From Amoebophrya sp. A120 (lineage: Eukaryota > Protista > Dinoflagellata): a DNA stretch of 64,000 nucleotides. A program made the translations under genes and the position numbers. The notes beneath the pieces are model-generated. The model had not been told where the DNA came from. It searched no databases and was given only the letters and a program-made list of their open reading frames with translations. How positions within the stretch are numbered: the stretch's first letter is position 1; each line of letters starts with the position of its first letter. Below, piece after piece: positions 5,201-59,152 of the stretch. Location of the stretch: the NCBI GenBank assembly GCA_905178155.1, contig CAJINV010000019.1, forward strand, positions 1,100,913 to 1,164,912. Direction: 5' to 3'.

Positions 5201-8200
5201 AGCTCAGCATGACAAATGGAATCTGTCATGCTCACTTAGGTTGAACAAGAAACTTGTCTTGCATGACTGCGATTAGTACGAGTACGATGCTTTTGCACAG
5301 GATAGCTCGCCGACCTCGCGCATCGAGAGTTTCTTATCCGTCATCACCTTGTTGTCCAGCTGGATGCGGAGCACCCAGGGAGAAAGCCGGTCCCGGTTGT
5401 CTTCTTCGTCGGGGAGCTCGTAGTACTCGCCCACCCATTCGCGATCCTCGGGCACAATGGTTTGGTCGGGCTCAGGGTCGTAAAAGATCTGTAGTGCGAG
5501 AACAAGTAGAGGAAATGCGAGCGGTCTCTTTTTAAAAACGTATCAAAACAAAAATCTGTTTCGAATCCACCCCAAAAAGTAGATCTCTATTTTCTACAGT
5601 TTAGCTGGCCCTCTATCACAAAGGAAGCGCAAGGGACAGATGCAGATCTTGGTCGCATCTTCGTCCGCCATTTACGTCACAAAATCCAAATCACTCGCAC
5701 GGAAATATATATCAAACGGTCAAGAAGTGTTGTACTATGAAATTGCATCGATAGATTGCATCTGCTTCTGCTGTACTAAATGAACAGAACTATCTATCCA
5801 GGAAAAAAACTGTGTTAGTATATTGAAAACTAAAATCCCAAAGGGAAGATATAACTTTCTATGGCTAACAGCATCACAAATTTGCTGTACATGACAGAGA
5901 AAACCCGTCATGCGTGACCTGTAAGGGAAAACACACATGAAAAGAGGACGTCATGGCTGTCTGGCATGACAGGTGTAACTCTGTTGCATGTCCTGCATCA
6001 CAGAGTTACACTTACACGGTTTTTTTCTTGCATACTATCTACAAATTTTATACCTGTGAAAAACTGGTGATTTTCTCGAGAGTGGTGTGTTCGATATGCG
6101 CCTGGACATTTTTCGCCGCCTGTTTGGATTTGGACACTTCGGGGACTAAATAACAGGTCAGCGAGGGGGTTTTCACGGTCTTCGCCACGTTGATAATCTC
6201 CTTCAACCGCGGCACGCCAAGGGTAACGTTCTTGGACCCAACCTGTTGAGAAATATTTCAGTATCATTGAAAATTGTATTAGAATAGTCAGGTGGAACGA
6301 CAGCAGCCTGCACCACGACGGGGGTGCACTCGGTCGGGGGCGACGAGCCACGACGGTGACATATTATCATTCTTGAACGCGCCTACTGCTACTTACTTCT
6401 TGAGAACATTTGTCCAACACCAGCATGAGCATCGTCAAAACAACTTAAAATTTTTCCTGCAGGGGTAGAACCAATGAGGCAAGAAAAACCAAAAGTAAAC
6501 ATCCACTAAATACCCCGGCAAAGTGGAAGGTGTTTAGTGTCATCTGTGTGGCCGGTTCTCCGACGGACTGCGCAGCGATGGTCCCGACCATCTCGCCCGC
6601 TTGCGCCAGCGACCGTTCGAATTTGTCCTTGATTTCCCCGAGGAGCCAGTCCAGGGACCGTTTTGTCAGCTTGTCCTGCTCGAGCACGCGTCGACTGTTT
6701 AACCGTGTGCGCAGGTGGGCGTTAAGCACGATCATACTGTTGTTTAAAGTCTCCAGACCGAGCTCGTCCGACTCGTCCAACCCCTTAATGGTCTGGAGGG
6801 AGTCCATCAGGGCATTCACCTTGTTGATGATCTGCACCGGCGTGTAGTACTCCAGATCGCCTGCTTCCGTTCTCAGATCTTGCTCAAAGATCATCTGCGA
6901 TGTCTTCACCAGTCGGTCGATCGGAACCGGCAAGTGCTGCTTCGCCTCGCCATCCGGATAGATCTCCTGGCAGAGTTTGCGCTTGTAGTTCTTCAGCCGA
7001 TCGTACTCCTCGTCCATAATTTTTCGGTCCGCGGTGCGCCGCCCCTCCTGCAGCTCCTTGAGCCAGAGGCTGTTGTCGTCGCCGAGCAGCCAGTTCTTGC
7101 CGTAGTCGGGGGATTATCAAATGTAAAAATGTCCGGGTCTGGAAGATTCTGACACTTGTCATGCACGTTTTGCATGAGCCATGATGTCTGTGATGCATAC
7201 CCTAGCAATACAGATTTTTTGAGGGCTTCTTGATGCCTATTCCGCATGACAAATGTCTTCTCAGCGTAGAAAAAATTGCATTCCCTTTGCTAGTACTCAT
7301 GCAATACAGATTTTCTTGGAATCCAAATGTAGCACCACAAGTTGCATTCTTCCAGACCCAGACATTTTTGCATTTGATAGAGATTCGTGGTTGTTGCGCA
7401 GCTTGTCGTCCACCTGTTTGTGGGACCACTTGATCAGATCCAAATCCTGGTCCTCAATGTAGACCGCGTCCATGCCGTCCTCCCCGTACAAAAACTGCAC
7501 AATGTCCTCATTGTCGTTCCGGACGGTGCCGTCGTATCGCACCTTCAGCGTTTCCATGGACTTCACCAGCCGGCGCTGAATGTACCCGGTTTCGGAGGTC
7601 TTCACCGCCGTGTCGATCACTCCCTCGCGACCACCCATCGCGTGAAAGTAAAGTTCCTCGGGCGTCAATCCGGCGAGGTAACTGTTCTCGACGAAGCCCC
7701 GGGACTCCGGCCCGTAGTCGTCTTTCGCAAAGTGCGGCAGCGTTCGGTCGCGGAAGCCGTTGGCGATCCGCTTCCCTTCGACGTTCTGCTGATATCCTGT
7801 GCACAAGTATCGCACTCGTACTAATTGCAATTATGCATGACAAATCGTGTCCTTAAGGTGAAACAGCATTACAAATTGAATTTCTCATGCTGAGGGAATT
7901 TGTAATGCATTTATACGAGTACGATACTTTTGCAGTTCATAGCTGACCCACGCAGGCAATAATCTGGGCGACGTTAATGTTCGAACCCTTGGAGCCGCAC
8001 TATCGAGTGCAAAAATGTCTGGGTCTGGAAGGGTTGGAACTTGTGATGCAAACTTTGGACTCTAAAAAAATCTGTATTGCATGACCAGGAAGAGGAGCCA
8101 CATTTGTGCTACGCGAGGAGGGCATTTGTCATCCGGAAATGGCATCAGGAAGCTTTCCAAAAATCTGTGATGCTGGGTCATGCATTACAAGCATCATGGG

Positions 8201-11200
8201 TCATGCCAGACAAGCATGACAAGCCTTCTATTCTTCCAGACCCACACATTTTTGCATTTGATACGCACGTCACCATCGCAATAATGTTATTCCGCTCATC
8301 CAGGGAGTCGGAACCTGTGAAGATGTGTTGGGCAAAGCGTCAGATGATGAAGGAAGAATTGAATATTTTTGTCGATCGCAGTAGTTCCCCTCCTTGCACA
8401 GGTGGCATCTTCTTCGTGAGGAAGTAGGGAAGAAGTAGAGCGACGTCTTCAACTTTTATTATTGGCGCGGTTCTTTCAACATTGAATTCATTAGCTTCAG
8501 CGTTCCGTAATGTTCACGGTACAACTGCATCTGCTCTGTATTCAGAACTTGCAACGAGCAGCACCGTGCGGCTCCTTCGATACACCGGCGGCACTACTTC
8601 GGTACAACTACTTCTGCATGCAAGCAGGAATAATTCTAGTAATTGCGACAAAAACCATAAACACGAAGAGACACCAGCATCACTTAGCTACAGAAAAATT
8701 TCTCTATTATACCGATTCGCCCCGCCTCCTCGCGCGCACTGTTCAGGGACTGATTCACGGCGTGCTCGAAGGATTGGTGCATGGTTTTTCCTGGCTGCGT
8801 GTCCAACTCTCCGCGCTGGGCCTTGGCCACCGTTTCGGCCACCTTGTCCTTCGCGCCCCGCAGCGTCTCGGCCACCCGCTGCATCGTCTCGTCGTTGGCC
8901 ACAATATCCGCGCACCCGCACGTAAACCCGTGGTGCAGCAGCCAGGTGTTTACCATCTTTTGGATGTAAGAAATCAAAATCTTACACGCCTCCGGACCGT
9001 GGTCGAGCCAGGTCAAGTGCAAAACACCCCCGGATTGGGTACCTGAGTCGATGAGGAGAGGTTCTTTCAGATGGAAAATCAAAGAACGCAGTGAGTTGTG
9101 TGATTCCTTTTCCTGCACAGAGCTGCATGAAATTTCGATCGCGACCGGTAGAAATAGCACTTCTCCGCATGACGTCTTCCATTTTTTTGCGATAGGTCAT
9201 GATAAAATGAAATGTCACTAATCTTTTGCTTTTCGAAATCTATCAATTATGCACATTAATCCGCAGGACCAGAATAATTACCAACGATTTTTTTGTCCAC
9301 CCGTCCGCAGACGACTTGACCTATCACACAGAAAAAAACTGGCAGGTCATATTTGTAATGCAGAAATAAATAGACAAGAAAACTTGTATTGCATAGCATG
9401 CTACAACGAGATCGCCCATGACCTGTGTATTTATTTTTGCATTACAAATGTGCCCTGCCAGCTTTTTTCTGTGGGATATGACCGTCGCGGATCACGCACT
9501 TGTGATCGGACTTCGAAAACATGGCGTTGTATCAAAGTGAAAAATCCCCCCACCCCATAGTCAAACTAGAAATTTGTGATGCAGATCTGTGGCCACAAAT
9601 CAGCTTTGTCATGCTAGAAGGGAAAAGATGCGGACTGTAGTGATGGCTGGCCTGGGAAAGCCTTGCATCTTCAGCATGACAAGGGGCAGCTGGAAGTGGG
9701 AAACAGCATGACAACTTGCCTGCAAAGGAGGCCACAGCTGCGTCTCTTGGCCTTCTAGCATTACAAGTCGATTTGTGTACTCAAATACAGCACCACAAAT
9801 TTCAATTTCGATGTGGGGAGGGGGAATTTTTCCTTTTGATACGTTGTCACCCTTGTTTTTCGCCGCCACGCCGTTGTCTTTCGTGACGTTCAGTCGTGGC
9901 TTTAACAGCAGCGAGAAAATCTGCTTCCCGGACCACAGCGGCTCCGGCTTCAGGATGCAGGGGATGGGCACCTGGCCGTTCCAGTCCGGCAGCGTGAGGC
10001 AGAGCGAAAACACCGCGTCCCGGGTCAACAGCGTGTCGCGCTTGGTAAACTTGGACACGGCGAGGCAGGCATCCTGCACGATGCCCATCACCGGCTTGTT
10101 GCCCTGGGGAGACACCTATCAAGTGCAAATATGTCTGACTCTGGAAATTTGTGATGCATGTGAGTGAACAGAAAGCGCGCTGTAATGCACCGCCAAGCAT
10201 GACAGATTTTCTCGTGGCCCTGTGTTGCGTATTCCGCATGAGAAACATGGTTTTTGCATGACAGACAAGAGGAGGTCTTCGCGGCCACGCAATACAGAGT
10301 TCTGAGTCATGCCAAACTAGCATGAGAAGTCTCGCAATCTTCCAGACCCAGACATATTTGCAATGCATAAGACCATTTGCTTGGGCACCAGCATGATGTG
10401 CTTGATTTCCGCGCGGGTCTCGTGACTCTGCGCCAGGTGCAGGTTCATCTCGTCGCCGTCGAAGTCCGCGTTATAGGGGCTGGTCGCAGACAAATTGAGG
10501 CGGAAGGTGCTGTAGGGCAAAATCTTCGCCCGGTGCCCCATCATACTCATCTTGTGCAGCGAGGGCTGCCGGTTGAACACCACAAAGTCGTTGTCCACCA
10601 TGTGCCGCTCCACCTTGTCGCCGATTTGCAGAAACCCGGCGGCCTCCTGGTCGTTCTCGGGGACGTGCGTATACCGCAGATCGATCGTGCTCCCGTCCGG
10701 CTTCTTGATGAACTTCGCCCCCGGCCACTCCGTGGGCCCGTTGCGGACCGCTTTAAGGAGCTTCTTGAAGGTGATGGAGGTCACCCGCTCGGGGAAGGTC
10801 AGGTTGAAGGCGATGGACCGCGGCACGCCGACCTGATCAATGTCCAACATGGGATCCCCACCAATGACCGTTCGCGCCGAGAAGTCCACGCGCTTGCCCA
10901 TCAAGTGGCCGCGCAACCGGCCCTCCTTGCCCTTGAGCCGCTCGCGGATGGACTTGATCGGCTTGCGGGACTTGGTGGTCGCCTGGGGGAGGGACTGGAT
11001 GTTGTTGTCGCACAGAGTGTAGATGTGGTACTGCAGCAGGTTCGCGAACTCCTGACACACGTGCTTGCCGCTGCCCATCTGCAGCTGCTGCTTCAGCGTC
11101 AGGTTGGCCTTCAGCAGGTCCAGAAGCTTGGCCGTCAGGTCGTCCTCACTGCGGTCGGTGCCGAAGGAAACTGTGGGTCGCACCGGGGGCGGTGGGACGG

Positions 11201-13064
11201 GAAAGACGGTCAAAATCAGCCACGCGGGGTCTGACTTGCCCGGAATGAAACCCATGGCCAGCTTGTCGCGGTCCGAAATGTTGCTCAGAATGCGGTACGC
11301 CTCCTCCCCAGTCAGTTGCCCTGTTTTGGTCGTTTTTCAAATTTTACTAGGATGTTGGCCATGATATTGAAGCACCACGGATTCATTATTAGTTGTGCCG
11401 CGGTACACAGGACGGTACTGGAGCACTAAACGAAAAATGAAATGATCTGTATCTACTTCCATAAAAATACGTTTTCTATCCTTGTTTTCCCCCTCGTCTG
11501 TCTCGTCCTCTGGGAAAACGACGAACACTTGCGCCCCCTCCTGCACTATGGATTGCAAAAATGTCTGGGTCTGGAAGGTTGTAACTTGTGATGCTATCTT
11601 CGGATTCCAAAAAAATCTGTAATGCATGACCAGCAAGAGGCTCAGTTTTTGCCACGGCGAGAGGGCATTTCTCATGCGTAATTAGCATTAAGAAGCTTTC
11701 AAAAAATCTGTGATGCTAGAACCAGCATCACAGACCTCACGGATCATGCAAAATGTGCATGACAAGCCCCGACTCTTCCAGACCCAGACATTTTTGCATT
11801 TGATATGCACGTATTTTGGTTGCGCATAGCCGCACCCGGAGGTCGCACTCGCCATTACTTCCAGGTCTTATGGATGTGTCAGAGTTGAAATCGACAAAGT
11901 TGAAACAATTTGCCATGCATAAAATGAATGCCAATTAGACCTGCAGTTTGTAGTCGGTGCATGACAAATTTTCCTGGTCCTGGAAGCGAGTCTGTCATGC
12001 GGTTTAGGGCAAAAGAGCTGCCTTCTGTCATGCTAGTCAGCAGTTCAACTGTTGACCCTTACCAGGACTATTATCTGCCTCCCTTGCGTCCTCTGCAATA
12101 GAGTCACATTTTGTATCGCATTTTATGCATTACAAGTTATTTCAACTTTGTCGATTTCAACTCTGACACATCCATAGGTCTTCCCCGTTTTGTATTGCCT
12201 GCTGATCCGTCACGAACGGACACCGCTTCTTACTTCGGCAAAGAGCGCATACCTGCAGGTGGATGGTTTTAAATTATAATCAAATTTCAAATTTGTGCTT
12301 TGTGGAGGAACGCACTACTGCTGAGCAAGGTGGCAAATAACGCAAAACGTGAGTCGCTGCATGTAGTCCCGGCGTGGTCGCCCTTCCAAGGCTATGTAGC
12401 GCCAGTACAAGCTCCAGGTCGTCTCGGACCAAGTCGGATCGAAGTCGAACAAACAACACAAAATCTAATATCAAAAGAAAAGCAAATACGTGCGCCAGTC
12501 GCTGCTTCATGTTCTTGGACTGTTGCGCCTTCTGGATGCCCAAGTCGTCGTAGGGCGTGAGTAAACGACTGCAGTAGTAACAAACGCAGCGCAGGCAACT
12601 GAGTGTCGTTTTTAAAAATCCCCAGGAAAACATGGGCTGCGCGAGCACGATGTGGCCAAAGTGCCCGGGACAGTTGTCCATGTTCATGCTGCAGGTGTCG
12701 CAGGGGGTCTGGTAGTCGATGGGGCCCATGCGCGGGTCGTTGAGCCCGCCGTAGGTGGGGAGCCCGCCCTCATAGGTGTTGGGGTTCACCACTTCACACA
12801 CCGACTGCTGGGTAATTTCGTCCGGGGACAGCACGGTGAACTATCCTGTGCAAAAGTATCGCACTCGTAGGAATCGCAGTTATGCATCACAAATCTCCAC
12901 TCCAAGGCAAAACAGCATGACAAATTCCATTTGTCATGCTGAGCTAATTTGTATTGCAATTACTACTAGTACGATAATTTTGCAGATCATATGAACCGCA
13001 CCGCGGCGATCTTCTTGTAGGGCGCCCGGGACTTGGGCACGTCCAGGTCGCTCACCGTCGTCAT
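2227..13064 (-). CDS. RPB1: DNA-directed RNA polymerase II largest subunit (multi-exon: ~9 GT-AG introns plus 12 exonic TAT..ATA element introns)
   Basis: Motifs [37 protein letters not shown], catalytic [56 protein letters not shown]. The frame is continuous after removing the elements. The 3' end (stop at 2227) is less certain. Confidence 0.96.
2497..2758. mobile_element. Introner family A (TIR TATcaaatgcaaaaatgtctgggtctggaa)
   Basis: Flanks cccgg/tccgg; interrupts RPB1 C-terminal exon; frame restored. Confidence 0.9.
2972..3254. mobile_element. Introner family D (TIR TATcctgagtaaaaacgtacccacaccagagt)
   Basis: TSD attcc/attcc; excision gives RPEFSPG. Confidence 0.9.
5156..5304. mobile_element. 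Introner family C (~150 bp; TIR TAT..tgcaaaagtatcgcactcgta)
   Basis: TSD gctcg/gctcg; excision gives EVGERIIND. Confidence 0.93.
5795..6034. mobile_element. Family F element nested in a GT-AG intron
   Basis: TSD ctatc/ctatc; partly decayed TIR; lies within RPB1 intron ~5489-6053. Confidence 0.8.
7115..7379. mobile_element. Introner family A
   Basis: Flanks gggat/gagat; excision gives NHESPDYGK. Confidence 0.92.
7793..7941. mobile_element. Introner family C
   Basis: TSD gctga/gctga; excision restores conserved [13 protein letters not shown]. Confidence 0.95.
8001..8263. mobile_element. Introner family A
   Basis: TSD cgcac/cgcac; excision restores [12 protein letters not shown]. Confidence 0.95.
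9322..9478. mobile_element. Introner family F (TATcacacagaaaaaa; long hairpin)
   Basis: TSD tgacc/tgacc; ~50 bp imperfect TIR; excision gives IRDGQVVCG. Confidence 0.92.
9530..9841. mobile_element. Introner family E (TIR TATcaaagtgaaaaatccccccaccccata)
   Basis: TSD cgttg/cgttg; excision gives GDNAMFSK. Confidence 0.92.
10117..10369. mobile_element. Introner family A
   Basis: Flanks acacc/agacc; excision restores [16 protein letters not shown]. Confidence 0.94.
11547..11805. mobile_element. Introner family A
   Basis: TSD tgcac/tgcac; excision gives QPKYVQEG. Confidence 0.93.
11869..12176. mobile_element. Introner family B (TIR TATggatgtgtcagagttgaaatcgacaaagttgaaa)
   Basis: Perfect ~37 bp TIR; TSD ggtct/ggtct; excision gives GEDLEVM. 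Confidence 0.94.
12842..12991. mobile_element. Introner family C
   Basis: TSD tgaac/tgaac; excision restores [11 protein letters not shown]. Confidence 0.95.
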
Positions 13065-15250
13065 GGCTGGGTAAAGGCACTTCGACTGGGTGGGAAGATA
13101 AAGAAGATACAGAAGCTGGTGTCGGTTGTTTTCTTGCGGAGGTCGGTCGCCTAGGTGGAGGAAAATAAAAACTTCTTCTACCGGGAGATTTTTACTAGAT
13201 TGCTACTAAGTTCTTGGAAAGAACAAGCGTCGAATGCAAGCGCGGCTCCGCTTTCTCAGCACCTGTTCCTCTTTTCGTCGACTTCGCCCCGGAGGTAGTT
13301 CTTGTCCAAGTCCACCTGATTCTAGTACGTTGTGGTACTTACTATCGGGGTCCCCGGAGCCCTAGGACGGCTGCAGTGAATGTCCCACGACGTCGAGGAG
13401 GGACAAATTAAAGCCACGCTCATGCTCTTTTCTTCGTCTCATTTTCGATGTGCCAGTACACGGCTCTCTGAAATATTACTAACTTGAGTATCTATTTTCC
13501 GTGCATCGGCTGCAGCAATCATGAACTCAAACCATACAATTATCCTTCTGGAGAACTACTACAACCAACTCATATAGCTTCTTCATGCTCGTCGTCACTC
13601 TTTTGTCTAAAGAACTTATTAATTTCTCTCTTGGTGTCGCCTGCGTAGTACTACAATTGATTCCATTTTAGAAGCGGTCTATGAATATTCGCCTTGTAGT
13701 GCCTTGTTTGTAGTACATGTGTTCGATCTTCATCTTGATGTTGACCCGACGCATTGAATTTCCGCGCCGGTTGGAGCGGAGCGACGACGGACTAGTGGCC
13801 GAAACAACACCGGTTCAATTTCACATCAGGCACCCCCGGTGCGGCGTGTCAAAAGAACGTGGATTACGATTACAGCCACACGCACTTCTCAGAAGCTACG
13901 AGCTTATGGTCTATTTTTTTAGTTATATCATCCTTGTTTTATTTCCTCCAAACGGATAGATCAGAATCTTGACTCTGCGTCTAGGCAGGGCGATAGATCC
14001 AATATGAGGCTGCGATTAACCAAAACACGAGCAGCTGCAGGTGCAGCAGAGATCTTTTATTACACATGTTGGCAGCACTCATTTGGGAGGTCAAAGTCTT
14101 TGGAGTTTTATTGCCTAGGATCTCGATCAGGATCAGGAGTATAAGTATAACGATCTAGTTTTATTAAAGGCCTGAATTTTATACGTAGAAACCACAAAGC
14201 AAAGGTGAAGAGCATACGGCTCTGATTTTTCAGAACCTCGTGTGCTGCTAAGGGCACCTCCTCTCGTCTATTCTCAGGCAGAATCTCGATTTGGCCGTAG
14301 TTTGCAGCAGCAACACATGCTGTATGCTGCAAGCTGCATAACGCAGAATTTTTCTTCAAACAGCATCATTCTGCCCTCCTCTCAGTCTTCACGCAATAGC
14401 AGCTTCCGAGAGATGTGGATACTCTGAAAGTCGTGCCGGTAGCAGCAATCCGCTTGATTTGAGTCGTGAGAATTGCATTTCCAGACCGGCAAATGACATC
14501 AACCACTGATCGTGATCATCCACAACACCAGATCTACTAATATGAACCCAACAAACTGCCTTCGCCGTCCTTTTCTCGTGCGTTGTTTTTTTTTGCACCA
14601 AGCAATAGTCCATCTAAATTTTTGTTGAAAAACTTTATTTCATTTTCCTGACGCAACTGCCTGTGGGTCTCTTTTTGATAATCATCATTATAATTTGTCA
14701 ATCTTTTCACAGCAGGATGAACGACGAAAATCCGCGATATTTCGTTAATCTTGCTGCTTGCTGTGCGTCAAAGACCACCCCGCAAAGACCGCGAAGAGCT
14801 TTTCAGATCATCAGATCCGGAGGACAGCTGCTGCTGTATAAGAGCCAGATCTTCACATACTCTAACACGACAATTCTCATCTGGTCGATCCGCTACGATT
14901 TTGATCATCTTGTACTCCTGCAGTTGCTTTTTACACGAGGGAAAAACGAAGATGACCTCTTCTGATTCTCTAGTGTAGTAGCAGGTCTACCAAAAAATTA
15001 AGTTAACACATTCTTTAAAGGAACGACTCGTCTCGTACAAAACGTAGACCTCTCTCTCTACCTAGTGGGAGCAGCAGACCATAGACCACGTCGCCGACCT
15101 AGAACTCATTCCAGTGTACTAATCATGCGTGGACCAAATCTCGTTGAGCCAAATTGGAATTCACATCGCAAGAAATGCCGAAATATAAAAATAAATGCGG
15201 TCTGCACGAGCCCGTAGTTATTGAGTTCCCTTGTTCTTTCGACAAGCTAC

Positions 15251-17815
15251 TTACGGCGTCCCCGCTATCACGAAGGTGAACAGCAGGCAGGCGGTCGCAG
15301 AGTTGACGCCCCGAATGGAGTTCCAGTAGGTCCAATTTTTCGAATACGCTGCCCAGGTGTCGTGCGCGCTCTCCAAGTGACCGTTTGGCTCCGGAGTATC
15401 AACTGCTGCTGCACAGGTGTCTTCTGGGTCTGGAAGTAAATATAAAGTGGGACTTGTGAAGATGCTTGTCTAGCCAATATCCTGGTGGGGGTGGCAAATG
15501 CAAATCAAAATCTGACTGTATTGCATGACCGAAAAGGCACGCCCTGCTTTGCTGTAGTGCATCATGCGCGCCATCTAAGTACCAGAGAGCGTGGTCTTAA
15601 CAAGTTGTCATGCTCTTTGGCTGAATTCGCAAGCGTTCCGGTCATGCACAATTCCACATCTCCACAAGTTTCCTTCCAGACCGCCTTAAGACATATATTG
15701 CATTTTTGCATACGGATTGTACTTCGCCAATTCGTCGTTCATCGGCACGTTGATTCCTGCCGTTTTTTATGCAAGTTCACGACAACAAGAACCTTATTTC
15801 CCACAATAATTTGTCGTGCGAAGTACCAAATCTAAACTCTGCCCCATGGCCCTGTTTGCATGAGAAGCTTTTTTTCGGATGAAGCCCAATAAAAAAAAAC
15901 AGTACTACACTGTATGTGTACAACACTTGTCTTGCGAACACTCGTCTTGCGGAGCCTGCCGTGTGGCTGTTGGTGTCCATATTTTTGCAGAAGAAGTTGA
16001 TGTATTCGGTCTTTTTCAAATTTTTATGAAGGGAGGGAAAGTTGCACGATACTTTCTCGTACTACTCCGAACTCGCCGATAAACAGGAGGATGCAGCTAT
16101 CCTGAGTAAAAACGTACCCACACCAGAGTTGTAATGCAGATTTGCAAAGACAGGAAGACTTGTACTGCGCATCCCCATGAGAGCCATTTCCAGTCGTGTT
16201 TTGGAATTTGTGATGCTGTGAAGAGGATGAGCAGATGAATCTGTGATGCGGCTGCACTTGCTAACCTGCACTACACTGCATAGTGCAACTTGTCATGCGT
16301 GACTCACAAAACTCCTAGGTTTGTGTTGCAAAATCCCCATCCTGACTCTGGTGTGGGTACGTTTTTACTCAGAATAGCAGCCAACGTAGAGCGCAAACGA
16401 CGTCAGCATGGAATCGGACTCACTTGGCTCTTGCGCTGGCGAGGTGTTGTTCATCGTGCCCTGGGTCGCTACTTGCGCCAACTGGTCACTCCCCGTCATC
16501 GTGGGCGTGGTTCCGCTTGTTGAATGAGAGTGCACGAAGACAAACATACAACCCCGCCCCATGATTCGTTAAATGCAAAATACCAAATCTAGTAGCCTTA
16601 GACTCGTCGTGGCAGTGTGTGCATGGCAAGTTCCCCCGAAACAGCACTGCATTCTCCGCAACTGGCCGAGTTGTCATGCGATTGCGCCAGCAGTGTTAGT
16701 TATCGCCAGAAAAAACTGTTTCACTGTAAACTTGTAATGCAGAAAATGCATCTCGCAAGTGTTTGTGTTGCTACACATGCAAGCCAGTGGATTTTTAGCT
16801 GTGTTTTCCCTTAGGAACCTCGCATGGCAAATTTTCCCTGTCATGTAGAACAAACTTGTGATACAAAACCTGCAAAATCCTTACAGTGAAACACTTTTTT
16901 CGTACGATATTAGTTGCTGGTGTCTCTGTTGCTGTAGTAAGTTGTAGATACCACTACAGTTCAAAATAACGACGGGGCGGGGGAGTAGGTATTTTCCACC
17001 CTCTTATGTCGCTCCTACCGGCTGATACGTGGCGTAGGCGTTCGGTGCGCCGGTTCCGAGCTGCAAAAATCGCAGCTCCTGGAGAACTATGAATTGCAAA
17101 AGCATCGTATTCGTATGAATGCATTACAAATTTCCTCAGCATGATGAGAAAGAAAATTTGTAATGCGGATTTGCCTCGGGAACAAGATTTGTAATGCAAG
17201 ACTTGCATTTATACGAGTACGATACTTTTGCACAGGATAAGAAACAGGAGCACCGCCAGGATGGGGGTGCCCATGAAGACCAGCATAAAATACTCGTTGA
17301 TAATCACCACGTTGATGCTGTTCATGACGTCAATCGCGACCGTCGCGTCCGGCTGCTCGTTATCAAATGCAAAAATGTCTGGGTCTGGAAGTTCTTGTGA
17401 TGCTGGCTGGGAAAGACGAGGACGCCTCAATGAATTGACTGGCAAGCATGACAAGTTTTGGAGGTGCTACAGTCTACTTGGCTTTTCTGCATGACACAGT
17501 GAGCTTCTGCATGACAGAAAAGTAGGGCTTTTGGCGGTAATTTGTATGACAGACTTGAGGGCGATGTCAGACAAGCATGACAAACTTCCATTCTTCCAGA
17601 CCCAGACGTATTTGCATTTGATATTCGTCCAAGGCGGGCATCACGCACACCGAGAAAATGAAATACAGGCCCGCCAGCACGCCCGAGCCCAAAATTGTTA
17701 ACGCGAGGAGAACACTCCGGAACAGTGCTTGTTTTGAGCCCGGCTTCCTTCTGCCCGCCGCCTGCTGCTGCGGGTTCTGGTGCTGGACCAGCGGATCGGC
17801 AATGGAGCTCTGCAT
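15251..17815 (-). CDS. DUF1772 / anthrone oxygenase-like membrane protein (multi-exon)
   Basis: Assembled segments GVLAGLYFIFSVCVMPALDEQ..MNSINVVIINEYFMLVFMGT..GEFGVTAGINVPMNDELA..WAAYSKNWTYWNSIR match the DUF1772 pattern. Middle exons (16.5-17.0 kb) are unresolved. Confidence 0.75.
15397..15712. mobile_element. Aged introner, family A with indels in the TIRs
   Basis: Flanks cggag/cggat; excision gives KYNPEPNG. Confidence 0.8.
15768..16061. mobile_element. Fossil element / non-canonical intron
   Basis: Separates EFGV from TAGINVP. An in-frame TAA two codons before ACG forces a non-AG 3' end after ..TTGCATA. TIR and TSD are largely lost. Confidence 0.55.
16098..16376. mobile_element. Introner family D
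   Basis: TSD gcagc/gcagc; excision gives YVGCILLF. Confidence 0.92.
16701..16909. mobile_element. Family F element (~210 bp)
   Basis: TSD ttagt/ttagt; TIR tatcgccagaaaaaactgtttcactgtaa; exonic vs intronic position unresolved. Confidence 0.85.
17088..17239. mobile_element. Introner family C
   Basis: Flanks agaac/agaaa; excision gives LLFLQELR. Confidence 0.9.
17361..17623. mobile_element. Introner family A
   Basis: Flanks ctcgt/ttcgt; excision gives PALDEQPD. Confidence 0.92.
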
Positions 17816-38789: not shown

Positions 38790-39054
38790 TATCAAATGTA
38801 AAAATGTCTGGGTATGGAAGATTGCCAGGTTTGTCATGCATGTTTTGCATGACCCCTGACGTCTGTGATGCATGCCCTAGCATCACAGATTTTGTGAGGG
38901 CTACCTGATGCCTATACCGCATGACAAATGCTCTTTCAGAGCAGCAAAACTTGGACTCTCTTTCTTGCTGCTCATGCAATACAGATTTTTTTACAATCCA
39001 AAACCAGCATGACAAATTGGATTCTTCCAGACCCAGACATTTTTACAGTTGATA
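38790..39054. mobile_element. Family A element in 5' UTR or upstream exon of CWC25
   Basis: TSD actct/actct; 18 nt upstream of the putative ATG. Confidence 0.9.
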
Positions 39055-49538: not shown

Positions 49539-52500
49539 TCAAATCTCCAGGAAATAGTCCTTCGGTGCCCACACCCTTAACGACCGGTCGTCGCTAATCG
49601 AGAAGAGGTAATTATCGTCCATTCTATCGGACAGTATCCTGGTCGACGTCCTATCTTCGTGTTCCTCCCCACCACTAACCTCCGGCCTGGTCACCCATAG
49701 ACAACTAGAAACCGAGGATGCGTGTCCCTTCAGTGTGCAGAGCAGCGTCCCCAGTTCCTTGTGCCACACACAAATCACACTCGTTTCGGACCCGATGATG
49801 ACAAACTCTTCCCGTTTCCCCCCGAAGGTCGGACGGAGAATATATCAAAGTGAAAAAAGCCCCCACCCCATATCGAAAACGAAATTTGTGATGCTGTGTT
49901 TCAGTACACAAATCACATTTGTATTGCAGTAGAGCACTGCACGCAGCTCGCAAGCCTAGGTAGGGACCTTTTGGTGTAGGCGCTTAGCATGGTAGACGGC
50001 TGCCCTGTAGGCCCTACAGCATCACAAATCGCCTGCATAACGTGCCGGGCAGCCTGGACTTGCCTTCTTGCACGACAAGCGCGATTTGTGGCCACAAATC
50101 TGCATCACAAATTTTCAGATGGATGCGCTTTCAATATGGGGAGGGGGGATTTTTCCTCACGATAGAATAAACCGAGACTGGGTGTGCCCGTAGTACTCCT
50201 GCTTCTTCTCAATCTTCAGAGAGAATTTTTTCTGCTGTTTGATGTTCTTCGTGTGTTCCCCGGCTTGCCTGTTTCTACTCCAATTATTCCCTCTTGTAGT
50301 ACCGGAAGATGATGTTGAAAGCGCGTTAGTCACTGTGCCCGCAAAATCGTTGTACGGCTCATGATGATGATCCTGTTCGTCATTACTACCGAAGGGCTGA
50401 AATCCACTTGACCCGCCTGAGAAGTCGCCTACAACTTGCATGTCCTGCAATACCACGTCCAGCTGCCAAAGTCTGACCAGCCCCGAAGGCCCCCTCTCAC
50501 TATTCCCCAGCGCGGCGCGACTGGCGAGCAGTGCGTTCGTCAGGTTTGACGCGCGGATGCTGGTCACGGGTTCCTTCTCGGGAATGGTGGCCAACTCCAA
50601 AGGCGTCGCATCGGAAAGTTTCGGCGGCAACACGGCAAAGGAGGTCGGGTTACCGGACCGCGTGCGGGAACCCGAGGGGGCCAAAAACGGCGGCGAAAGC
50701 GAACCCATTTGCTGGGACATAATGTATCCTGAGTAAAAACGTACCCACACCAGAGTCAGGGTGGGGATTTTGCAACACAAACCTAGGAGTTTTAGGAGTC
50801 ACGCATGACAAGTTTCAGTCCGTAAGGTAGTGCAAGTTAGCAAGGAAAGCCGCATCACAAATCGACCTTCTGATCCTGTTTACAGCATTACAAGTTCCCA
50901 AACACGATTGAAAATGCCTGTCATGGGGTTGCGCATCACAAATGTTCCTGTCATGGCAAATCTGCATGACAACTCTGGGGTGGGGACGTTTTTACACAGG
51001 ATATAATGTCCTGTTTGTTCTTCGCCTTTTTCGTACCGTAGACCTTGATTCCCTTTTCCACGGACAAAACGAACAGCAGCGTCTTATTGTAGTTGAAGCA
51101 CAAATCCTGAATCGGCGACGTCTGAATCGTCCACAGGGGCTGGGTATTGATTGCAAATATGTCTGGGTCTGGAAACTTGTAATGCTAAACGTGGATAATA
51201 GACGCACTGCAATACGCAGCTATGCATGACAAATTTTTTGGCTGCCATGTCTTACGTATTCCGCATGGCAAACTGCGTTTTTGCATGACAGGTGAGAGGG
51301 CCTGTTCGTGCCTATGCAACACAGATTCTTGAGTCATGCCAAATAAGCATGACAAACTTCTTGCACTCTTCCAGACCCAGACATACTTGCAGTTTATACT
51401 GGGTTTTCAAAAGAAATTGCGGGGTGGTGCTAGCAGATCCCGCTGTTGTTTGATGGACCTTTTGTTCCACGAATTGGATCTTCGCCGCGCGAATTCGGTA
51501 CGGGCTGAACGAAGACGATTGCTCGAAGGTTGCATAAACAAATTCCGTCTCGCTCATCCAGTCGACGTGCAGATAGGCGGAATTTCGCTCCATCACGAGG
51601 GAGCCCACTTGGTGGATACAGTGGTTGATAGAAGTCCTTTTCTTTTCCGTTTCCCCCGCTGCCGATGTAGTTCCTTCGTAGTTCTCTCCGGATGTATTTT
51701 CCTGCCCAGCCAAACCCAAACCCGTAGTAGTATCTTGCTCATCGAACAGAGTCGGTGTTTTGTACACCACAGGTGTGGCCCCAGCAGATTCCGTCCTTTC
51801 CAAAGCAGCTGAGTCCTTGTTCGTTGCGCTATTCGCGGATGAATTTGATGCTGGATTTGTTCCTGTAGCTGTGGATGTCTTTGCTGAGTCCTGACCACCA
51901 CGAAAATCGACAAAATTTTCCGCGAATTCCTCTTCCGGGAAGGTCCACAGCCACAGCTTCTTCATGCTACACCCCAAAAGCATCTTGCCGTCGGTGGAGA
52001 AAGCCAGACAGGTGACTGCTTTTTCCGCCTCCACGTCGTCGTCCTCCACGTCTGGCTCCGGCCTGGGCGTCGGAGAACTTGGGTTCTTGTCCTTCCTCTG
52101 CGGGGCCGCATCGATCCAGTGGGAAAGCTCCACCATGTTCTCTCCGTCGTCATGATGAGGAGGGGCGAAATTACTATTTGCCTGCGCTACGGGAGGATGT
52201 TGTGGTCCGGCGCCCCCCGGAACAAGGTTAGTATTCACAACGTTAGTACTGGACGACGAAAACAGCGAACGCGCGTTCGTATTGGTGTTCGCAGCTGCAC
52301 CTCCTGCCGTGTGTCCGACCGAATTTTCCAAAACCAGCCCGCCTTGTAGCTGCAAAAATGTCTGGGTCTGGAAACTTGTAATGCTTGGTTGGGAATAGTG
52401 AATGCTCTGTAATGCACAGCCTTGCATGAGAAAGGTTTGCGCTGCTCAGTGTTGCGCTTTCCGCATGACAAACTGCGTTTTTGCATGACAGGCAAGAGGC

Positions 52501-55500
52501 CCTTTTCCTGCTCATGCATCACAGATTTAAGAGTCATGCCAGACAAGCATGACAAACGTGCATTCTTCCTGACCCAGACATATTTGCAACCCATACGCCG
52601 GCGCTGCTACCAAACTGCAAGTTGTTCGAAGGAGCATTATTGTAGTTACCACCCGCCGTGGTCGTGACCCCACCACCGCCCGTCATTCCACCGGCGCGAA
52701 AAACCGCCTTGCGTTCGAGAACTGGGACTTTGACGTTTCTCCTAGATGTACTACTTCTTCGCTGGTGGTTGTAAAGACGCACAGCGGCCGCCGCGTCAGG
52801 AGCGCGGGCAAATTGAAGTTCCGAAGTCGTATTCCAATCCTTTATCGCACGCTTCACAATTCTACTTTTCCGGTCTGCAGCACGGGAGTTGTAGAAACTT
52901 TTCAGACGCCGCGGACCACGTGTCTCAAATGCAAAAGTGTCTGGGTCTAGAAGATTGCAACTTGTCATGCTGTTTTTCGACTCTAAAAAAATTTGTATTG
53001 CATGACCAGCAAGAGGGGGGCAATTTGTGCTACACGGACCACAGGGCATTTCTCATGCGGAAGGTGCATCAGGAAGGGTTCTAAAAATCTGTAATGCTAG
53101 GGCATACATCACAGACAATCGTGGGTCATGAGAAATATGCATGACAAATCATGCATTCTTCCAGACCCAGATACTTTTGCATTTGATAACGTGCTCGACC
53201 ACCCAACATGGTGTACGCGTTCATCTTCGACGGCGAGACGGAATTGTGATAGTATGCAATAAAAAAACTGTGTAAGTGTAACTCTGTCTTGCAGATGTTG
53301 CAATACAGTTACACTTGTCAAGCCGGCTATGCATCAGAGGCTATTTTAGTACGTGTTTTAGCGTACCAACTACGCATGACAAGTTTTCTGTCATGCAAAA
53401 CAAATCTGTGATGCTGTTCCTGCAAAAACGTTACACTTACACAGTTTTTTTCTTGCATAAATAAATTGCGCTGTCCATTTCCCTTCCCAATTCTGCGTGC
53501 GACGTGTCGTAGTGGTTGTCATAATTAAACGTGTTGAATAAAGAGCTGTCTTCGTAGTTCTCTCCTTCACCAGAACCACCAGCAGCAGCACGCCCGTCCG
53601 GTATAATTTCAGCAGAACCTGTTGAACAATGTCCTGCTCGTGGCCCCAACGCGGCGGAATGATCAACGGTCGCATCAAACCCAATCGTGTAGATGCACAC
53701 CCGGCGGTCTCTCCCTGCTGTGGCGACGATCGTTTTCATCATCTTCTTTATGGAGAGAAAAAGGTTTGTCACAGTCACTAATTTGCAGGCTTTGCATTAC
53801 AAATTTTCTTAGCATCACAAATTTTCCTTGTATTGCAGAAAACACTACGGAAATCCGTAATAAAGTTTGGCTGTGATGCATTTTTACGCATGACAAGCAA
53901 TTTTGTATTGCAAAAATGCGCATGAGTGACCGTGACGAACTTTTTTTGTTTGATATTCTTTGGGCTTGTTGCACTTGCACCAGAAGACGCACCAGTGGTG
54001 AAAACATGCAACGCCGGATTGGACACAGCAAGGCTCCAAAGCTCGTCGCTGTGGCTCACGAGCACTTCCCTTTGCAATAACGGGACCGGGAGCGGTGCGC
54101 ATGTGTAGTTCTCCATCAGGCTTCTCGTTCCGCGGGGGCCGGTAATATGGTTCTTGTTTGACGTCATCATCGGCCGGGGGATTGACATCACGCTAGATGG
54201 TGCACCAGAAATAGTTGCACCAGAATTCAGCCCCAAGACGCTCGCCACGTCATTCTGAAAAGGGGAAACCAGCTCTTGGTACTTCAAAGCCTGGTGACAG
54301 ATTTCCACGAAGCGGTTGGGCGGTGTCATGATGTTTGAAGGTAAGAGTTTCAGAATGGTGTCATATAAGTTTTTCCGTGTGTAGTGCAAACTGAATTTCT
54401 GCGGATGATCTCCTTCTCCTTTACTAGTAGCGTTTCTAGTGCGCCCTCGCGCTTCTCCTTGTGCTTTTCCCCGTCCACCAGCTCGCCGCAAACTTCTAAA
54501 CTGCTTGCTTTGTTTGAAGTCATCCACTAACAGAAACGAGGAGAGCTCGTGCACCCGTTTCTGCATTTTTTCGGAGTTGACTATCCCATTTTCCGGTAAG
54601 AGCATGAACTGCAGGAGTTGGATGGCTGTGATGATATCGTCGAAAAAAAGAAGCTCCAAGTAGTACTGTTCGTAGATGAGAAAGATGATTTTCTCCTTGT
54701 TCTTCTCCCACGTGTAGAATTCAGATAAGCTCGTGGGTTGCCGGGGTGGACGAAGAGGATCGTGTACGAACGACGAGGACCCACTGCTGGCACCACCAGC
54801 CGCAAAGTTTTCATCAAAAACCGTGTCCAGCAGCTCAAGCGCACCCTCGTAGTCGATTTTCGATGTCCTCGCAGGTTCCTGTTGATCTTCTATATTCTTT
54901 CCATCCACGACCTCTTCCGCATCTAGTCGCAATTTCTGCTTCAGCTGCTTGCACCAGGGGCTTTCCAGGCTCAACCCCGTCTCCTTTTCCAATGTCTGTA
55001 GAGATTGTGCGAGATATCCTGAGTAAAAACGCACCCACACCAGAGTCAGGATGGGGATTTTGCAGCACAAACCTAGGAGCTTTGTGAGTCACGCATCACA
55101 AGTTGCGCTATGCAGTGTAGTGCAGGTTAGCAAGTGCAGCCGCGTCACAGATTCATCTGCTCATCCTGTTCATAGCATCACAAATTCCAAAACACGATTG
55201 GAAATGGCTCTCATGGGGATGCGCATTACAAGTCTTCCTGTCTTTGCAAATCTGCATTACAACTCTGGTGTGGGTACGTTTTTACTCAGGATACGAGATT
55301 TAGAGACTTCAATGTCTGCATGATCAACAGCAGCACCTCGCTTGTCTGCAGGTTATTTCTGCTACCGGGAATTATCGCTTTGTTACCGAGGAGATTTTTT
55401 GAAGAAGACTCTATGCCACGAGGACCGACAATGAGAGTGTCTGCGTTTTTGTCCAGCATTTCCACGTCTATTGCAGACGCATCAATTGCACCAGCCACGG

Positions 55501-55907
55501 GCGCGGCCCCACCACCGCTACCCCCTCCGCCCTTCTTACCCCCGTGTTGACCACCTCCGCCGCCCTTGACCCGCTGTTTTTTCTGTTATCAAATGTAAAA
55601 ATGTCTGGGTCTGGAAGAGTGCATGTTTGTCATGCTAGATCTGGATCATGCAACAATCTGTGTTGCATGAGTACCAAAAGCCGTGCATTTTTAACCAAGG
55701 TGACAAGGAGTTTCTCATGCAGGATAGGCATGAGAGAGATCGCAGAGAATCTGTCATACTAGGTCCTGCATTCCTCACCTCATGGGTCATGGAAAAGCTG
55801 CATGACAAATCGCGCATTCTTCCAGACCCAGACATTTTTGCATTTGATATCTGTTGCGGCCCACCCATTTTCGGATCCAATGTTGAGGACTCAGCGCGTT
55901 TGCTCAT
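49539..55907 (-). CDS. WDR26: WD40 protein with LisH/CTLH, WDR26/GID7-like
   Basis: LisH QTLKSLNLAQSLQTLEKETG, CTLH IFLIYEQYYLELL, PPNRF..QALKYQ, WD repeats HSDELW, ATAGRD, YYGHTQSRFILRPTFGG, LKGHASSV. Confidence 0.8.
49843..50164. mobile_element. Introner family E
   Basis: TSD gaata/gaata; restores QSRFILRPTFGG. Confidence 0.93.
50725..51003. mobile_element. Introner family D
   Basis: TSD taatg/taatg; near-identical to 27095-27373 in opposite orientation. Confidence 0.92.
51145..51398. mobile_element. Introner family A
   Basis: TSD ctggg/ctggg. Confidence 0.9.
52345..52595. mobile_element. Introner family A (TGT left terminus)
   Basis: Flanks cgcct/cgccg; excision gives SAGGLVLE. Confidence 0.88.
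52923..53188. mobile_element. Introner family A (TCT left terminus)
   Basis: TSD acgtg/acgtg; frame restored. Confidence 0.9.
53253..53459. mobile_element. Introner family F
   Basis: TIR tatgcaa(t/g)aaaaaaactgtgtaagtgtaac; flanks gatag/aataa; frame restored. Confidence 0.88.
53779..53925. mobile_element. Aged ~150-bp introner
   Basis: Flanks gtcac/gtgac; dense octamer motifs; excision joins two ORFs in frame (FVTVTVTNLF). Confidence 0.7.
55015..55293. mobile_element. Introner family D
   Basis: TSD cgaga/cgaga; restores LisH motif. Confidence 0.93.
55587..55849. mobile_element. Introner family A
   Basis: TSD tctgt/tctgt; excision gives GPQQKKQR. Confidence 0.92.
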
Positions 55908-57357
55908 GCTTGATGGGAGATGTTGAAAATTGGTGGACGATGTTGAAAAAGGGGCAGTCTGACTGATCGTGTTCTTTCTCTTGCCGTCGTACTAAAAGTC
56001 GCACGGCGAACGTCGTCCCCCGCGGAGTTGAGGTTAGTACTGCACGGAGATTTGTTCTTCGGTGCAGCAGGAGCTACGTTGAAGCGCATGGTTTAGCTAT
56101 TTGTTTTGAAGAGAGGTTGGTAGTAGTAGTTTCATATCAAAAATAGTATCGCGTTGTGAGTTCTTTATCCTTCCGACGTTTTATTTTGATACCTACCGTA
56201 AGGTCGCTCGTCAGAAAGGTATGTTGTTGCTTCTCGCGACGACCAGGGGAGGTCGGCGTCGCCTGGTTATCGCTTCCTTCAGCTAAATAAACCGGGACCG
56301 GCATCAGATTAAGATTTGCTTCTGAGTTACAACGACAGCGCAAAAACTGTAGTCTTTTCCTTTCTGCGTCCTGAAGTCAGTGCAACGAAAAAAAAACGAA
56401 ATGATAGATCTTTTCTTCAACACGAGCACTGGAAGAAAACCACTGCGGGGGCCTAAGAAGCTCTTCGGCCTGAAGATCCTTGTGGTCGTCCCCGGCTCGA
56501 AGGTAATGCAAATAAAATGTTCGAACAGTCTGGCTGCTGACACAACTAAATTTCTCCCGAGCAGCGCTCGTCAAGAAAGTGGCGGTGGGACATCCACTTC
56601 TTGTCGTGTGAAAAAATAGATAATTTCTATATCAGGGACAACATCGTCAACGACTTTAGCACACAAAAGGGTTCGATTTTGAAAATGGTCATTGTCTTGT
56701 ATAAAATGTTAGTAGCTCCTTTTTCGTCCTACTATTCCTGTCTCTACTATGCTGTGCACAAGCCGGCGAGAAGAGTGTCGTCGTCGTGTTTTTTACCGCA
56801 AATTTCTTTCCTTTTATTGCGCTCCTTGCTTCCTTACGGTAGACCATTTCTTCTGGTCGCATTTATTATCATTGACAAATCATACAAGGAATGCTCATTC
56901 TCAAATCAATATTCTACATAAGCACTGAACAAAGCGCTCTTGATAAAGTATAACAGTACTAGCTCTCTTGGTTGCAACATGCCGACAGTGAATTGGATAA
57001 AAAATCACTAGTCGCCGCAATTTTCATTTTTGGGGTAGGAAATTCGAAAATCAAATTGCATCTAATTTTCGACTCAATCATGGTCTAACTTCAGCTTCTC
57101 TCCAAACTGTCGGTATAGGTTGTGAGTTCGTGCAGCAGGAGCAACGAGAGGTCAACAAAATAATGTACGGGTAACTGAATGAGATATCAAGTGAATGTCA
57201 TTTTCAAGAGTGGCCTTGCTTCAGTACAGTTCCCAGCGGAAATATAGCCGTCCGTAGTTGTCCTTTCCGCCGAATCTACCCTACGGTGGGCTCTTTTCAT
57301 CTTTTATTCCCTTTCCAATAGTTAAGCAGCTCTGCGAAGAGGACGCTGTGATCTTTA

Positions 57358-59152
57358 TCACGTAAGCGTAGATGAGGACCGCCGTATCATGGAAGTGTCC
57401 ATGCCACCTGTGGTAGTTTTTTATGCAACAATTTGACCAGCATGCTGAGTGCTGCGAGATAGCCATCGGATTCCGGCACTTCGCCTTTCATCTTTGTTTG
57501 CAAACTAAGAACACACGACTTAAACTTACCAAGAACTATCAATGGAAGATAAATTATACCAGCCCCAACCGGCCCGTCGTCTTTACTTCGTTCCCTATCT
57601 TTTTTTCTCTTTCCCCCACCGCTACTCGACGCGTCGCGCGGGGTCCACTCTTTCAGCGGCGATTTTCCAACGGAGAAAAGCCGTACATCCTGCTGCTCGA
57701 GTTGCTTGCTAGACGCCCCTATGCATTGCAAATATGTCTGGGTCTGGAAGAATGCAAGATTTGTCATGCTTGTTTCGCATGACTGTTAACGCTGTGATGC
57801 TTAGGCGCAAAAAGATCCTCTTGCCTGTCATGCAAAAATGGACCCTACCATGCGGAATACGCAACACACAGGAGCGCGAAAACTTGTCATGCTTGGTCAC
57901 CTATATCAGTGAGCTCATTACTCACATAGTTGCATCACAAGTTTCCGGACCCAGACATATTTGCATTTGATAGCCCCTCGCGAGTACATCATCTGCTCCT
58001 TAGACGGTCGCCAGTCGGGAGAGGAGGCTGGACCTAGTCAAGTATAAAAATGGCGTTGTTTTTTCCTCATGATGAAAAGAAAGTGACGAGTTCGAATCAC
58101 GACAAACAAAAATCCAATGGCGCGAAGCACCAGCATGAGAGGACAAAGAGCTTATTTATACCACTGAAGTCCTGGTAGCTATTTGATCTTCTCCGCACCC
58201 ATCGGGTTGCGTCTGCCTCGTAGCCAAACGGCCTTTCTATTGCATTATCAAGTGCAAATATGTCTGGGTCTGGAAGGTTCTGAGACTTGTCATGCACGGT
58301 TTGCATGAACCATGATGTCCGTGATGCATGCCCTAGCATCACAGGTTTTTTGCGGGATTCTTCATGCCCATTCCGCATGACAAATGCCCTCCCCGCGTAG
58401 CAAAAATTAGAATCCTTTTGCTGCTCATGCAACACAAATTGTTTAGACATCCACATGCAGCATCACAAGTTGCATTCTTCAAGACCCAAACATATTTGCA
58501 ATCCATATGCATCCACTTGATGCAACGGTCTTCCCACCACATCCTCTTTCGTCCCTGGTTGAGCGATATGCATTGCAAATATCCCTGGATGTCTGGAAGG
58601 TTCCACACTTGTCATGCCGTCTTTGGATTCTAAAAAAATCTGTATTGCTATGACCAGCAAGAGGAGCCCAGCTTGTGCTCCGCGGAGAGGGTATTTGTCA
58701 TGCGGAATAGGCACTTCAGGAAGCCTTCCAAAATAAATCTGTGATGCTAAGTCATGCACTACAGGCACCACGCGTCATGTAAGATATGCATTCTGCAAAC
58801 CTGGCAATGCAATCTTCCAGACCCAGACGTATTTGCATTTGATAAGCGACGATGGCGTTAGCCGCGGCTGTGTTCGCGCTAGATCCGCATCCCATATGCA
58901 TTGCAAATATGTCTTGGTCTGGAAACTTGTGATGCTGAGAGGCGTAGCGTCTGGAGGCCACAAGTGCTGGCCTAGCATGACAAATTTCTGAGCTTCTAGG
59001 TGTTGCCTATCCTGCATGACAAACAGCGTTTCGGCATGACAGAAAAATGTGGCTCTTGGGTAACGTGCATGACAGATTCAAGAGTCATGCCACGCAAGCA
59101 TGACAAACATGCATTCTTCCAGACCCAGACATTTTTGCATTTGATATCCCAT
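57358..59152 (-). CDS. Small hypothetical protein with MGCGSS dual-acylation-type N-terminus
   Basis: After excising four elements and two GT-AG introns the frame reads MGCGSSANTAAANAIVAQPGTKEDVVGRPLHQVDAIERPF..SRGASSKQLEQ..STLT*. Confidence 0.6.
57720..57972. mobile_element. Introner family A
   Basis: TSD gcccc/gcccc. Confidence 0.91.
58246..58507. mobile_element. Introner family A
   Basis: TSD tgcat/tgcat. Confidence 0.91.
58567..58844. mobile_element. Introner family A (variant left TIR)
   Basis: TSD agcga/agcga. Confidence 0.9.
58895..59146. mobile_element. Introner family A at the start codon
   Basis: TSD tccca/tccca overlapping ATG GGA on the minus strand. Confidence 0.91.

Follow-up and report, generated by a model that had tools for sequence, protein, structure and literature searches.

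Introner elements of Amoebophrya sp. A120 neighbour one another within a short bounded range of distances and are associated with a one-sided target motif

Introner elements of the dinoflagellate Amoebophrya sp. A120 are described, in the parts of Farhat et al. 2021 covered here, as non-coding elements of many families with ends that read TAT, seven nucleotides and AAA, short direct repeats and non-canonical boundaries (PMC7789003). The present analysis concerns a window of 64,000 nucleotides from this organism (contig CAJINV010000019.1, positions 1,100,913 to 1,164,912 of the forward strand; "the window" is this whole stretch), in which 66 elements were catalogued, 63 called by script and three by hand. 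These are known A120-type introners, and the new question is their spacing: at distances of 45-85 bp from another element's end, elements are about eight times as frequent as they are farther away. Huff et al. 2016 are said to have found that the introners of Micromonas and Aureococcus insert in nucleosome linkers. In the passages of PMC9860276 covered, those introners resemble miniature inverted-repeat transposable elements, as the window elements do, and their positions follow chromatin. Unlike them, the elements studied here lie 37-85 bp from a resident element, with no nucleosome-length period detected; the lineage is reported, in the sources as far as covered, to carry DVNP and few nucleosomes.

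The elements were also compared with IS3EU and GingerRoot, as portrayed in portions of PMC10045372, PMC12730594 and PMC6839031. The TA..TA termini of those groups are found here as well, and the fungal IS3EU end TAYGG..CCRTA resembles families 5 and 7. Their target duplication is usually 6 bp, whereas here it is 6 bp in 1 of 435 elements and 5 bp in 313 (the caller demands a 5-bp match), and GingerRoot is reported to lack nucleotide-specific targets, whereas the window elements have a target motif. Neither inter-element distances nor a target motif appear in the parts of PMC7789003 covered, in whose main text "exon length", "exon size" and "nucleosome" have no matches. The spacing rule and the motif are likewise not described in the passages considered of PMC12130899, PMC9860276, PMC12005148, PMC11282704, PMC11453091 and PMC7780238, or of bioRxiv 2020.10.14.339549 and 2024.02.09.579734. 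The literature as covered held no description of either for these elements, and supplementary material may bear on their novelty. The outcome is a replicated spacing rule for known introners; the one-sided target motif was apparently undescribed before.

The window elements start with TAT, end with ATA, have inverted repeats of about 30 bp and a 5-bp target duplication, and mostly measure 150-330 bp. The end profile of 58 of them, which had been chosen for TAT ends, gave T.99, A.99, T.98 and A.91-.95 at positions 11-13, the pattern of TAT, seven variable nucleotides and at least AAA that marks A120-type introners. The 3-5-nt direct repeat of those introners corresponds to the exact 5-bp duplication, and GT and AG were both readable at the boundaries of just 12 of the 435 elements. 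The elements are repeated without an internal transposase and fall into 68 clusters, the largest with 160 members; median lengths in the listed families are 112-346 bp. They resemble the described A120 introners in ends, repeats, boundaries, absent coding capacity and number of families (PMC7789003, as far as covered). An interior motif, TTGT(C/G/A)ATGC, is present in all families and in both orientations as TTGTCATGC-type arrays (for example at window 22126-22378), about four times per element (range 0-8) and at spacings of mostly 15-18, 31-35 and 47-48 bp. The terminal inverted repeat (TIR) pattern had no match in viral and prokaryote collections, and Rfam yielded no match. The elements are non-autonomous, with TAT...ATA inverted repeats and a 5-bp duplication, and are missing from likely-RNA contigs together with one copy of the duplication.

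The original prediction, made from the letters of the window, had held that neighbouring elements are separated by a stereotyped micro-exon of about 35-65 bp. These short gaps are real. All but one of its 23 listed values were reproduced exactly (22 of 23), and the remaining value, 36, is most likely the 46-bp gap at 16052-16097 minus two duplications; the left element has two candidate ends, and only the one at 16051 leaves an open frame. The quoted range is apt for the window, where 24 of 65 gaps measure 32-67 bp, none is under 32 bp and none falls at 68-89 bp, but it is not a constant, since the peak in a sister assembly spans 34-85 bp. Under a window-only null with element counts fixed per exon, 7.3 of 35 same-exon gaps were expected at 30-70 bp and 20 were observed (0 of 5000 runs), while 5.7 were expected in the empty zone under 30 bp and none was observed (p 0.0006). 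The elements and motifs concerned are as follows.

7793-7941 and 8001-8263: pair of elements in RPB1 (RNA polymerase II largest subunit), gap 59 bp; both missing from the sister assembly, whose locus L086 aligns across both sites (96-97%)
8278-8281, minus strand: one-sided target motif TTGC, 9 bp past the right duplication of element 8001
9322-9478 and 9530-9841: pair, gap 51 bp
10117-10369: single element; its site is empty in a putative sister-contig protein, which breaks at an element near 9936
11547-11805 and 11869-12176: pair, gap 63 bp
15397-15712, 15768-16051 and 16098-16376: triple, gaps 55 and 46 bp; the first two degenerate and called by hand
21793-23181: four elements (21793, 22126, 22418, 22729), gaps 53, 39 and 57 bp
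24645-24648, minus strand: one-sided target motif TTGC, 9 bp past the right duplication of single element 24369-24630
27464-27725 and 27769-28002: pair, gap 43 bp
30328-30902: weakly called, uncertain pair (30328/30625), gap 44 bp; scores 20.6 and 18.7
About 32515-32795: degenerate TATG...CATA element, spliced, 15 bp from element 32811-33114; an exception to the empty zone, outside the catalogue
33298-33549, 33601-33869 and 33921-34245: triple, gaps 51 and 51 bp
35291-35542 and 35610-35802: pair, gap 67 bp; 62-nt micro-exon in likely-RNA contigs
37428-39054: five elements, gaps 56, 55, 46 and 54 bp; 302 nt observed, 302 predicted
41147-41453 and 41519-41824: pair, gap 65 bp
43188-43439 and 43472-43713: pair, gap 32 bp, missed in the original prediction
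46000-46467: pair in the HAS1/DDX18 helicase gene, gap 54 bp
47752-48356: pair in the HAS1/DDX18 helicase gene, gap 33 bp
52923-53188 and 53253-53459: pair, gap 64 bp
58246-58507, 58567-58844 and 58895-59146: triple, gaps 59 and 50 bp

The first 51-bp gap of the triple at 33298 spans a GT-AG donor and is not an exon length, because element 33298 lies inside the GT-AG intron 33165-33556. Of the three exons of about 1 kb that had been pointed out as empty, the third starts at 53956 and not at 53926; empty exons of this size are unsurprising at a background near 1 element per kb.

The sister assembly JACKZZ01 served as an out-of-sample test of the peak first seen in the window. The sister set comprised 68 of 153 loci, merged to 61 (556 kb, 369 elements), and the 85 short loci formed a separate check; L012, L024 and L033 are alleles, and about two elements are counted twice. 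The peak recurred in the sister assembly and survived strict calling (62 of 153 gaps). Among the 217 pooled same-exon gaps, 117 measured 33-85 bp, against 44 expected under a per-exon and 37 under a per-locus null, and five were under 33 bp, against 29 and 24; for each count 0 of 1000 runs matched. The 33-85 bounds were picked after inspection of the data, and the pooled counts rest on an earlier end of element 15768, since revised. A hard-core null that excludes gaps under 33 bp gave 60 gaps at 33-85 bp (at most 74 in 200 runs), with or without motif weighting, and exons of at least 600 bp held 57 of 137 gaps in the band, against 17.7 expected. The lower limit is soft, given the five pooled exceptions and the degenerate element 15 bp from 32811. 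The caller retrieved planted pairs 6-30 bp apart in 36-40 of 40 cases per gap, and the empty zone is therefore not a calling artefact; random sequence gave at most one weak call per 64 kb.

The rate of meeting a next element, per kb of exon at risk, was 0 at 5-19 bp, 1.0 at 20-32 bp, 3.9 at 33-44 bp and 7.9-10.3 at 45-85 bp, and then fell to 1.4-2.4 at 86-149 bp and 1.0-1.3 at 150-999 bp. Fitted to 128 sister gaps with the same number of parameters, a box of 37-85 bp was better than a triangle (by 9 log units) and than a shifted exponential (by 13). The excess is flat, two-sided, sharply bounded and centred on element ends. The earlier proposal that insertion is directed by distance from a resident element fits in that the excess is element-centred and ends abruptly on its outer side, and in that GT-AG introns show it weakly or not at all; the distance is a flat band of about 50 bp rather than a single value. 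At GT-AG sites the next-element rate was 2.0-3.3 per kb at 33-85 bp, and with per-exon counts and exclusion fixed, 54 of 175 distances fell in that range against 58.7 expected, which is no excess. Short distances were depleted there too (9 of 175 against about 25). The empty zone is therefore general and soft, while the peak belongs to the elements. Degenerate elements found by the gene model were intermediate (10 of 35 at 33-85 bp).

Across 107.5 kb of element DNA no element was nested inside another, even though the density of the target motif in such DNA is 2.2 times that in exons. Occupancy of good target sites, for the two main families, was 0.1% at 5-32 bp, 2.1% at 33-44 bp, 4.5% at 45-85 bp, 0.7% at 86-139 bp and 0.5% at 140-249 bp from an element. 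Neighbours belonged to the same family no more often than permutation predicts (22 of 134; 25 expected), which rules out local hopping of one family. Gap lengths showed no frame bias (53:43:38), which rules out frame-preserving exon skipping, and no 10-bp helical periodicity (p 0.24). Gap size did not track the offset of the interior octamer (rho 0.03), and element length, strand and direction of transcription were likewise without effect. Hairpin avoidance between facing ends was rejected, complementarity being flat over gap classes. Co-transcriptional placement downstream of the last intron was also rejected: four weak proxies showed no age asymmetry (30:28, 52:53, 54:51, 73:60), and long gaps were similar. 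The ages of neighbours were uncorrelated (rho 0.03), a weak test that speaks against simultaneous double insertion.

Likely-RNA contigs from runs X3 and X4 were aligned to window 31000-39500. These contigs omit the elements as well as the GT-AG introns, so that removal from mRNA at non-canonical boundaries, a property of A120-type introners, is seen here too. The lengths between aligned pieces (302, 62 and 144 nt) equal the micro-exon sums after removal of each element with one duplication; the 62-nt micro-exon is the 67-bp gap minus 5. The five-element cluster has an open frame after excision with one duplication each, and a 15-nt exon is retained in the contigs. The gene model was run on element-free sequence and is therefore blind to the elements. 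It matches the transcript structure of a kinase gene, including a 61-nt exon, and errs at 35081-35282, which is labelled intron though covered by transcripts and is probably an untranslated region (UTR). Thirteen elements lie in short predicted introns, seven of them within 14 bp of the 5' splice site (window 5795-6034 and 33298-33549; L018, L026, L030); one of the elements in short predicted introns is backed by transcript contigs, and the others are possibly model errors.

A target motif was found on one side of the insertion sites. Counted from the duplication, 422 reconstructed sites were enriched for T at position -13 (52%, compared with 23%) and for G at -11 (45%, compared with 27%). This T.G was present on one side of 159 of the 226 sites of the two largest families, on both sides of 11 and on neither of 56, with backgrounds of 11% and 0.4%. 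The pattern was the same in held-out short loci (one side 56, both 1, none 16; 73 scorable) and in the window alone (one side 27, both 0, none 5; n=32). The one-sided model has an A-rich part followed by T.85, Y.87, G.88 and Y.77, and places the duplication after a further 9 bp; its log-likelihood was 349, whereas a symmetric model reached 232 and random sites 20-29. The smaller families favour other words (ATGAA, A.TR, A.TA), less certain at 16-35 sites each. The target motif is one-sided and family-specific, lies 10-16 bp from the duplication, and in the main two families is TYGY followed by 9 bp and the duplication. A one-sided motif is unexpected for a symmetric cut-and-paste complex and resembles a protospacer-adjacent motif (PAM) or the cut geometry of type IIS enzymes. 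Family-specific motifs would in turn imply family-specific enzymes.

The side of the motif is independent of gene strand (144 vs 128) and divides 78 vs 64 by element orientation in the largest family, family 3 being skewed (5 vs 20). Among short gaps it faced toward the neighbour in 83 and away from it in 106, with the same distribution of distances. The motif is not the cause of clustering, as a motif-weighted null gave 59.5 gaps at 33-85 bp. Copying from the element's own TIR variant was also dismissed, no within-family link surviving the number of tests. At exonic sites the centre of the duplication fell at codon positions 1/2/3 in 106/193/90 cases, a skew that may follow from the target motif.

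Sister contigs are 94-97% identical to the window at RPB1 and lack window elements 7793 and 8001, the empty sites aligning without an element; they have their own elements near 7601 and 6575. The putative protein assigned to the sister is continuous across site 10117 and is interrupted near 9936, within an apparent translated element end. A protein search for further sister sites gave no match. Intron gain was recent, because 0 of the 6 RPB1 sites checked are common to genomes that are 97% identical.

Tn7/TnsD, Dictyostelium TRE5-A and IS911 (beside its own ends) are known to insert at a fixed distance from a landmark that is bound by protein, and in Mu target immunity the element itself is protected. 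In contrast to those systems, every resident element apparently serves here as a landmark, the band extends broadly on both sides, and orientation is unconstrained. Attraction is equal between all families, and the factor behind it would therefore be shared; being blind to family, attraction must work through something held in common. The reading that we favour, at a probability of roughly 55%, is that resident elements are coated with protein, which keeps insertions off the element and its immediate surroundings, while a strip of about 50 bp on each side stays exposed and is favoured by new copies. The shared factor would most simply be a protein bound either to the TTGTCATGC-type arrays or to the ends that the families have in common. 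The target motif would be read by a DDE transposase, encoded elsewhere, that cuts 9 and 14 bp away, bulk packaging would resume about 70-85 bp out and set the outer edge, and clusters would grow at their edges into chains of exons of about 50 bp. The empty zone probably also owes something to selection against exons that are very short.

Several points weigh against this reading. The coat, the open strip and the transposase are what we infer, whereas the pattern, the non-nesting, the splicing and the target motif are what was observed, and no autonomous copy or transposase was found in 620 kb. The outer edge differs between genomes that are 97% identical in RPB1 exons: of the short gaps, 0 of 24 in the window and 39 of 111 in the sister loci measure 68-89 bp (p 1e-4 by Fisher's test, the cut being chosen after data inspection), and the window band is narrower (mean gap 52 vs 60; KS p 0.012). 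Longer-range chromatin phasing, one of the causes originally suggested, was not detected, nor was a second peak (best period 192 bp, p 0.32, n=77, low power). The link between octamer count and the presence of a close neighbour is weak (rho 0.08, p 0.11; 40% with 0-2 motifs, 55-69% with more). Edge growth and independent gaps account equally well for the cluster sizes (log-likelihood -268.3 vs -267.5), and the age proxies are weak (concordance 0.37). The exons come from a self-trained gene model without UTR states, checked against transcript contigs over 8.5 kb. All three sister RPB1 sites are more than 85 bp away from any window site, which with just three sites is a weak test of pre-existing hot zones, and in one pair of paralogs independent sites lie close together (offsets 2 vs 47 and 123). 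Finally, every visible copy has passed selection, and the same picture would be expected if copies beside a neighbour survived better.

A fuller version of the favoured reading, which we put forward tentatively, is two-step targeting: the resident would be immune to insertion itself and open a strip at 37-85 bp, a PAM-like family motif would set the 9/14 staggered cut, and self-spacing, rather than nucleosomes or splicing, would yield exons of about 50 bp.

It is unlikely that insertion is blind to neighbours and that the spacing reflects survival, a non-canonical intron being spliced better with a neighbour 45-85 nt away through cooperation across the short exon. Function does shape what is visible, elements being about seven times denser in predicted exons (389 in 269 kb) than elsewhere (46 in 242 kb), and the empty zone extends to GT-AG sites. 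However, 202 of the 435 elements are single, element 33298 holds its 51-bp spacing inside a GT-AG intron, of the 46 elements located outside predicted exons 15 are close to another (gene-model errors being possible, with one known miscall), and no frame bias was seen.

Unlikelier again is a shared adaptor on residents that captures incoming complexes through a flexible tether reaching 37-85 bp. Such a tether would produce the same two-sided, element-centred box with a sharp outer edge, and the interior motif and TAT ends common to all families could serve it; from sequence alone it is indistinguishable from a coat with an open strip. On the other hand, the lack of a helical period, the independence of the gap from motif offset and element length, and the near-equal facing of the target motif toward and away from the neighbour all count against it. 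One form suggested originally, an integrase tethered to the resident's own TIR, is unlikely given that same-family enrichment, a helical period and a link between gap size and octamer offset are all missing.

Pre-existing hot zones, independent of elements and filling with mutual exclusion of about 31 bp, are a poor candidate. The window range of 32-67 bp would match saturation filling at 31-bp exclusion, and the paralog pair has independent insertions within about 120 bp. Against this, the triangular shape fits worse than the box, an element's two sides are independent of each other (close neighbours on both sides in 35 elements, on one in 198 and on neither in 202, where a hand calculation expects about 41, 185 and 208), and the three sister RPB1 insertions fell elsewhere.

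A minimum exon size alone, with insertion otherwise random, can be rejected for the peak, since the hard-core null reaches at most 74 gaps where 117 were observed and a 15-nt exon is spliced, though this part of the original prediction may explain the empty zone, where gaps under 33 bp are depleted at element and GT-AG boundaries alike.

All modelled window genes lie on the minus strand of this eukaryotic genome. In the HAS1/DDX18 helicase gene an exon is 94% identical to a protein of Amoebophrya A25, the next named matches being at most 75%. Two further coding regions of the window are as follows.

3585-13085, minus strand: host gene RPB1, a 1595-aa model, stop-free after removal of elements and predicted introns
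49539-55908, minus strand: predicted single coding stretch of about 4 kb with 9 elements and zero GT-AG introns

Among proteins of 193-616 aa, none was homologous to a 352-aa part of the second at E 1e-20. Lengthened elements of about 0.45-1.2 kb were seen at L087/L088, L015:1537-2349, L028:632-1465, L020:505-1608 and window 22729-23181, their inserts not being nested elements where checked; the longest further element copies measure 0.8-1.1 kb. A TATGG/GTCAGAATCGAAATC-type element at window 63900-64000 is cut by the window end and has many copies in the sister loci. Degenerate TAT...ATA introns whose inverted repeat is nearly gone lie at 32092-32286, about 32515-32795 and 41924-42119, and many GT-AG donors read GTAT; the observations suggest that elements age into ordinary-looking introns. 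A GC-rich tandem repeat at window 29514-29828 (168-bp unit, 1.9 copies) is unlike the elements.

The spacing rule touches two open questions: at which places new introns insert, and what makes the exons of dinoflagellates so short. Two Symbiodiniaceae have median exons of 51-53 bp (Table 1 of PMC7789003, as far as that source was covered). Intron gain here obeys a spacing rule that can be measured, in a lineage whose chromatin is unusual and may have a natural footprint in the element positions, and the one-sided motif is a direct handle for finding and assaying the transposase. If residents do carry a coat flanked by open strips, this would show how genes get chopped into exons of about 50 bases: introns would breed introns at a set spacing and so give the exons of about 50 bp of intron-rich dinoflagellates.

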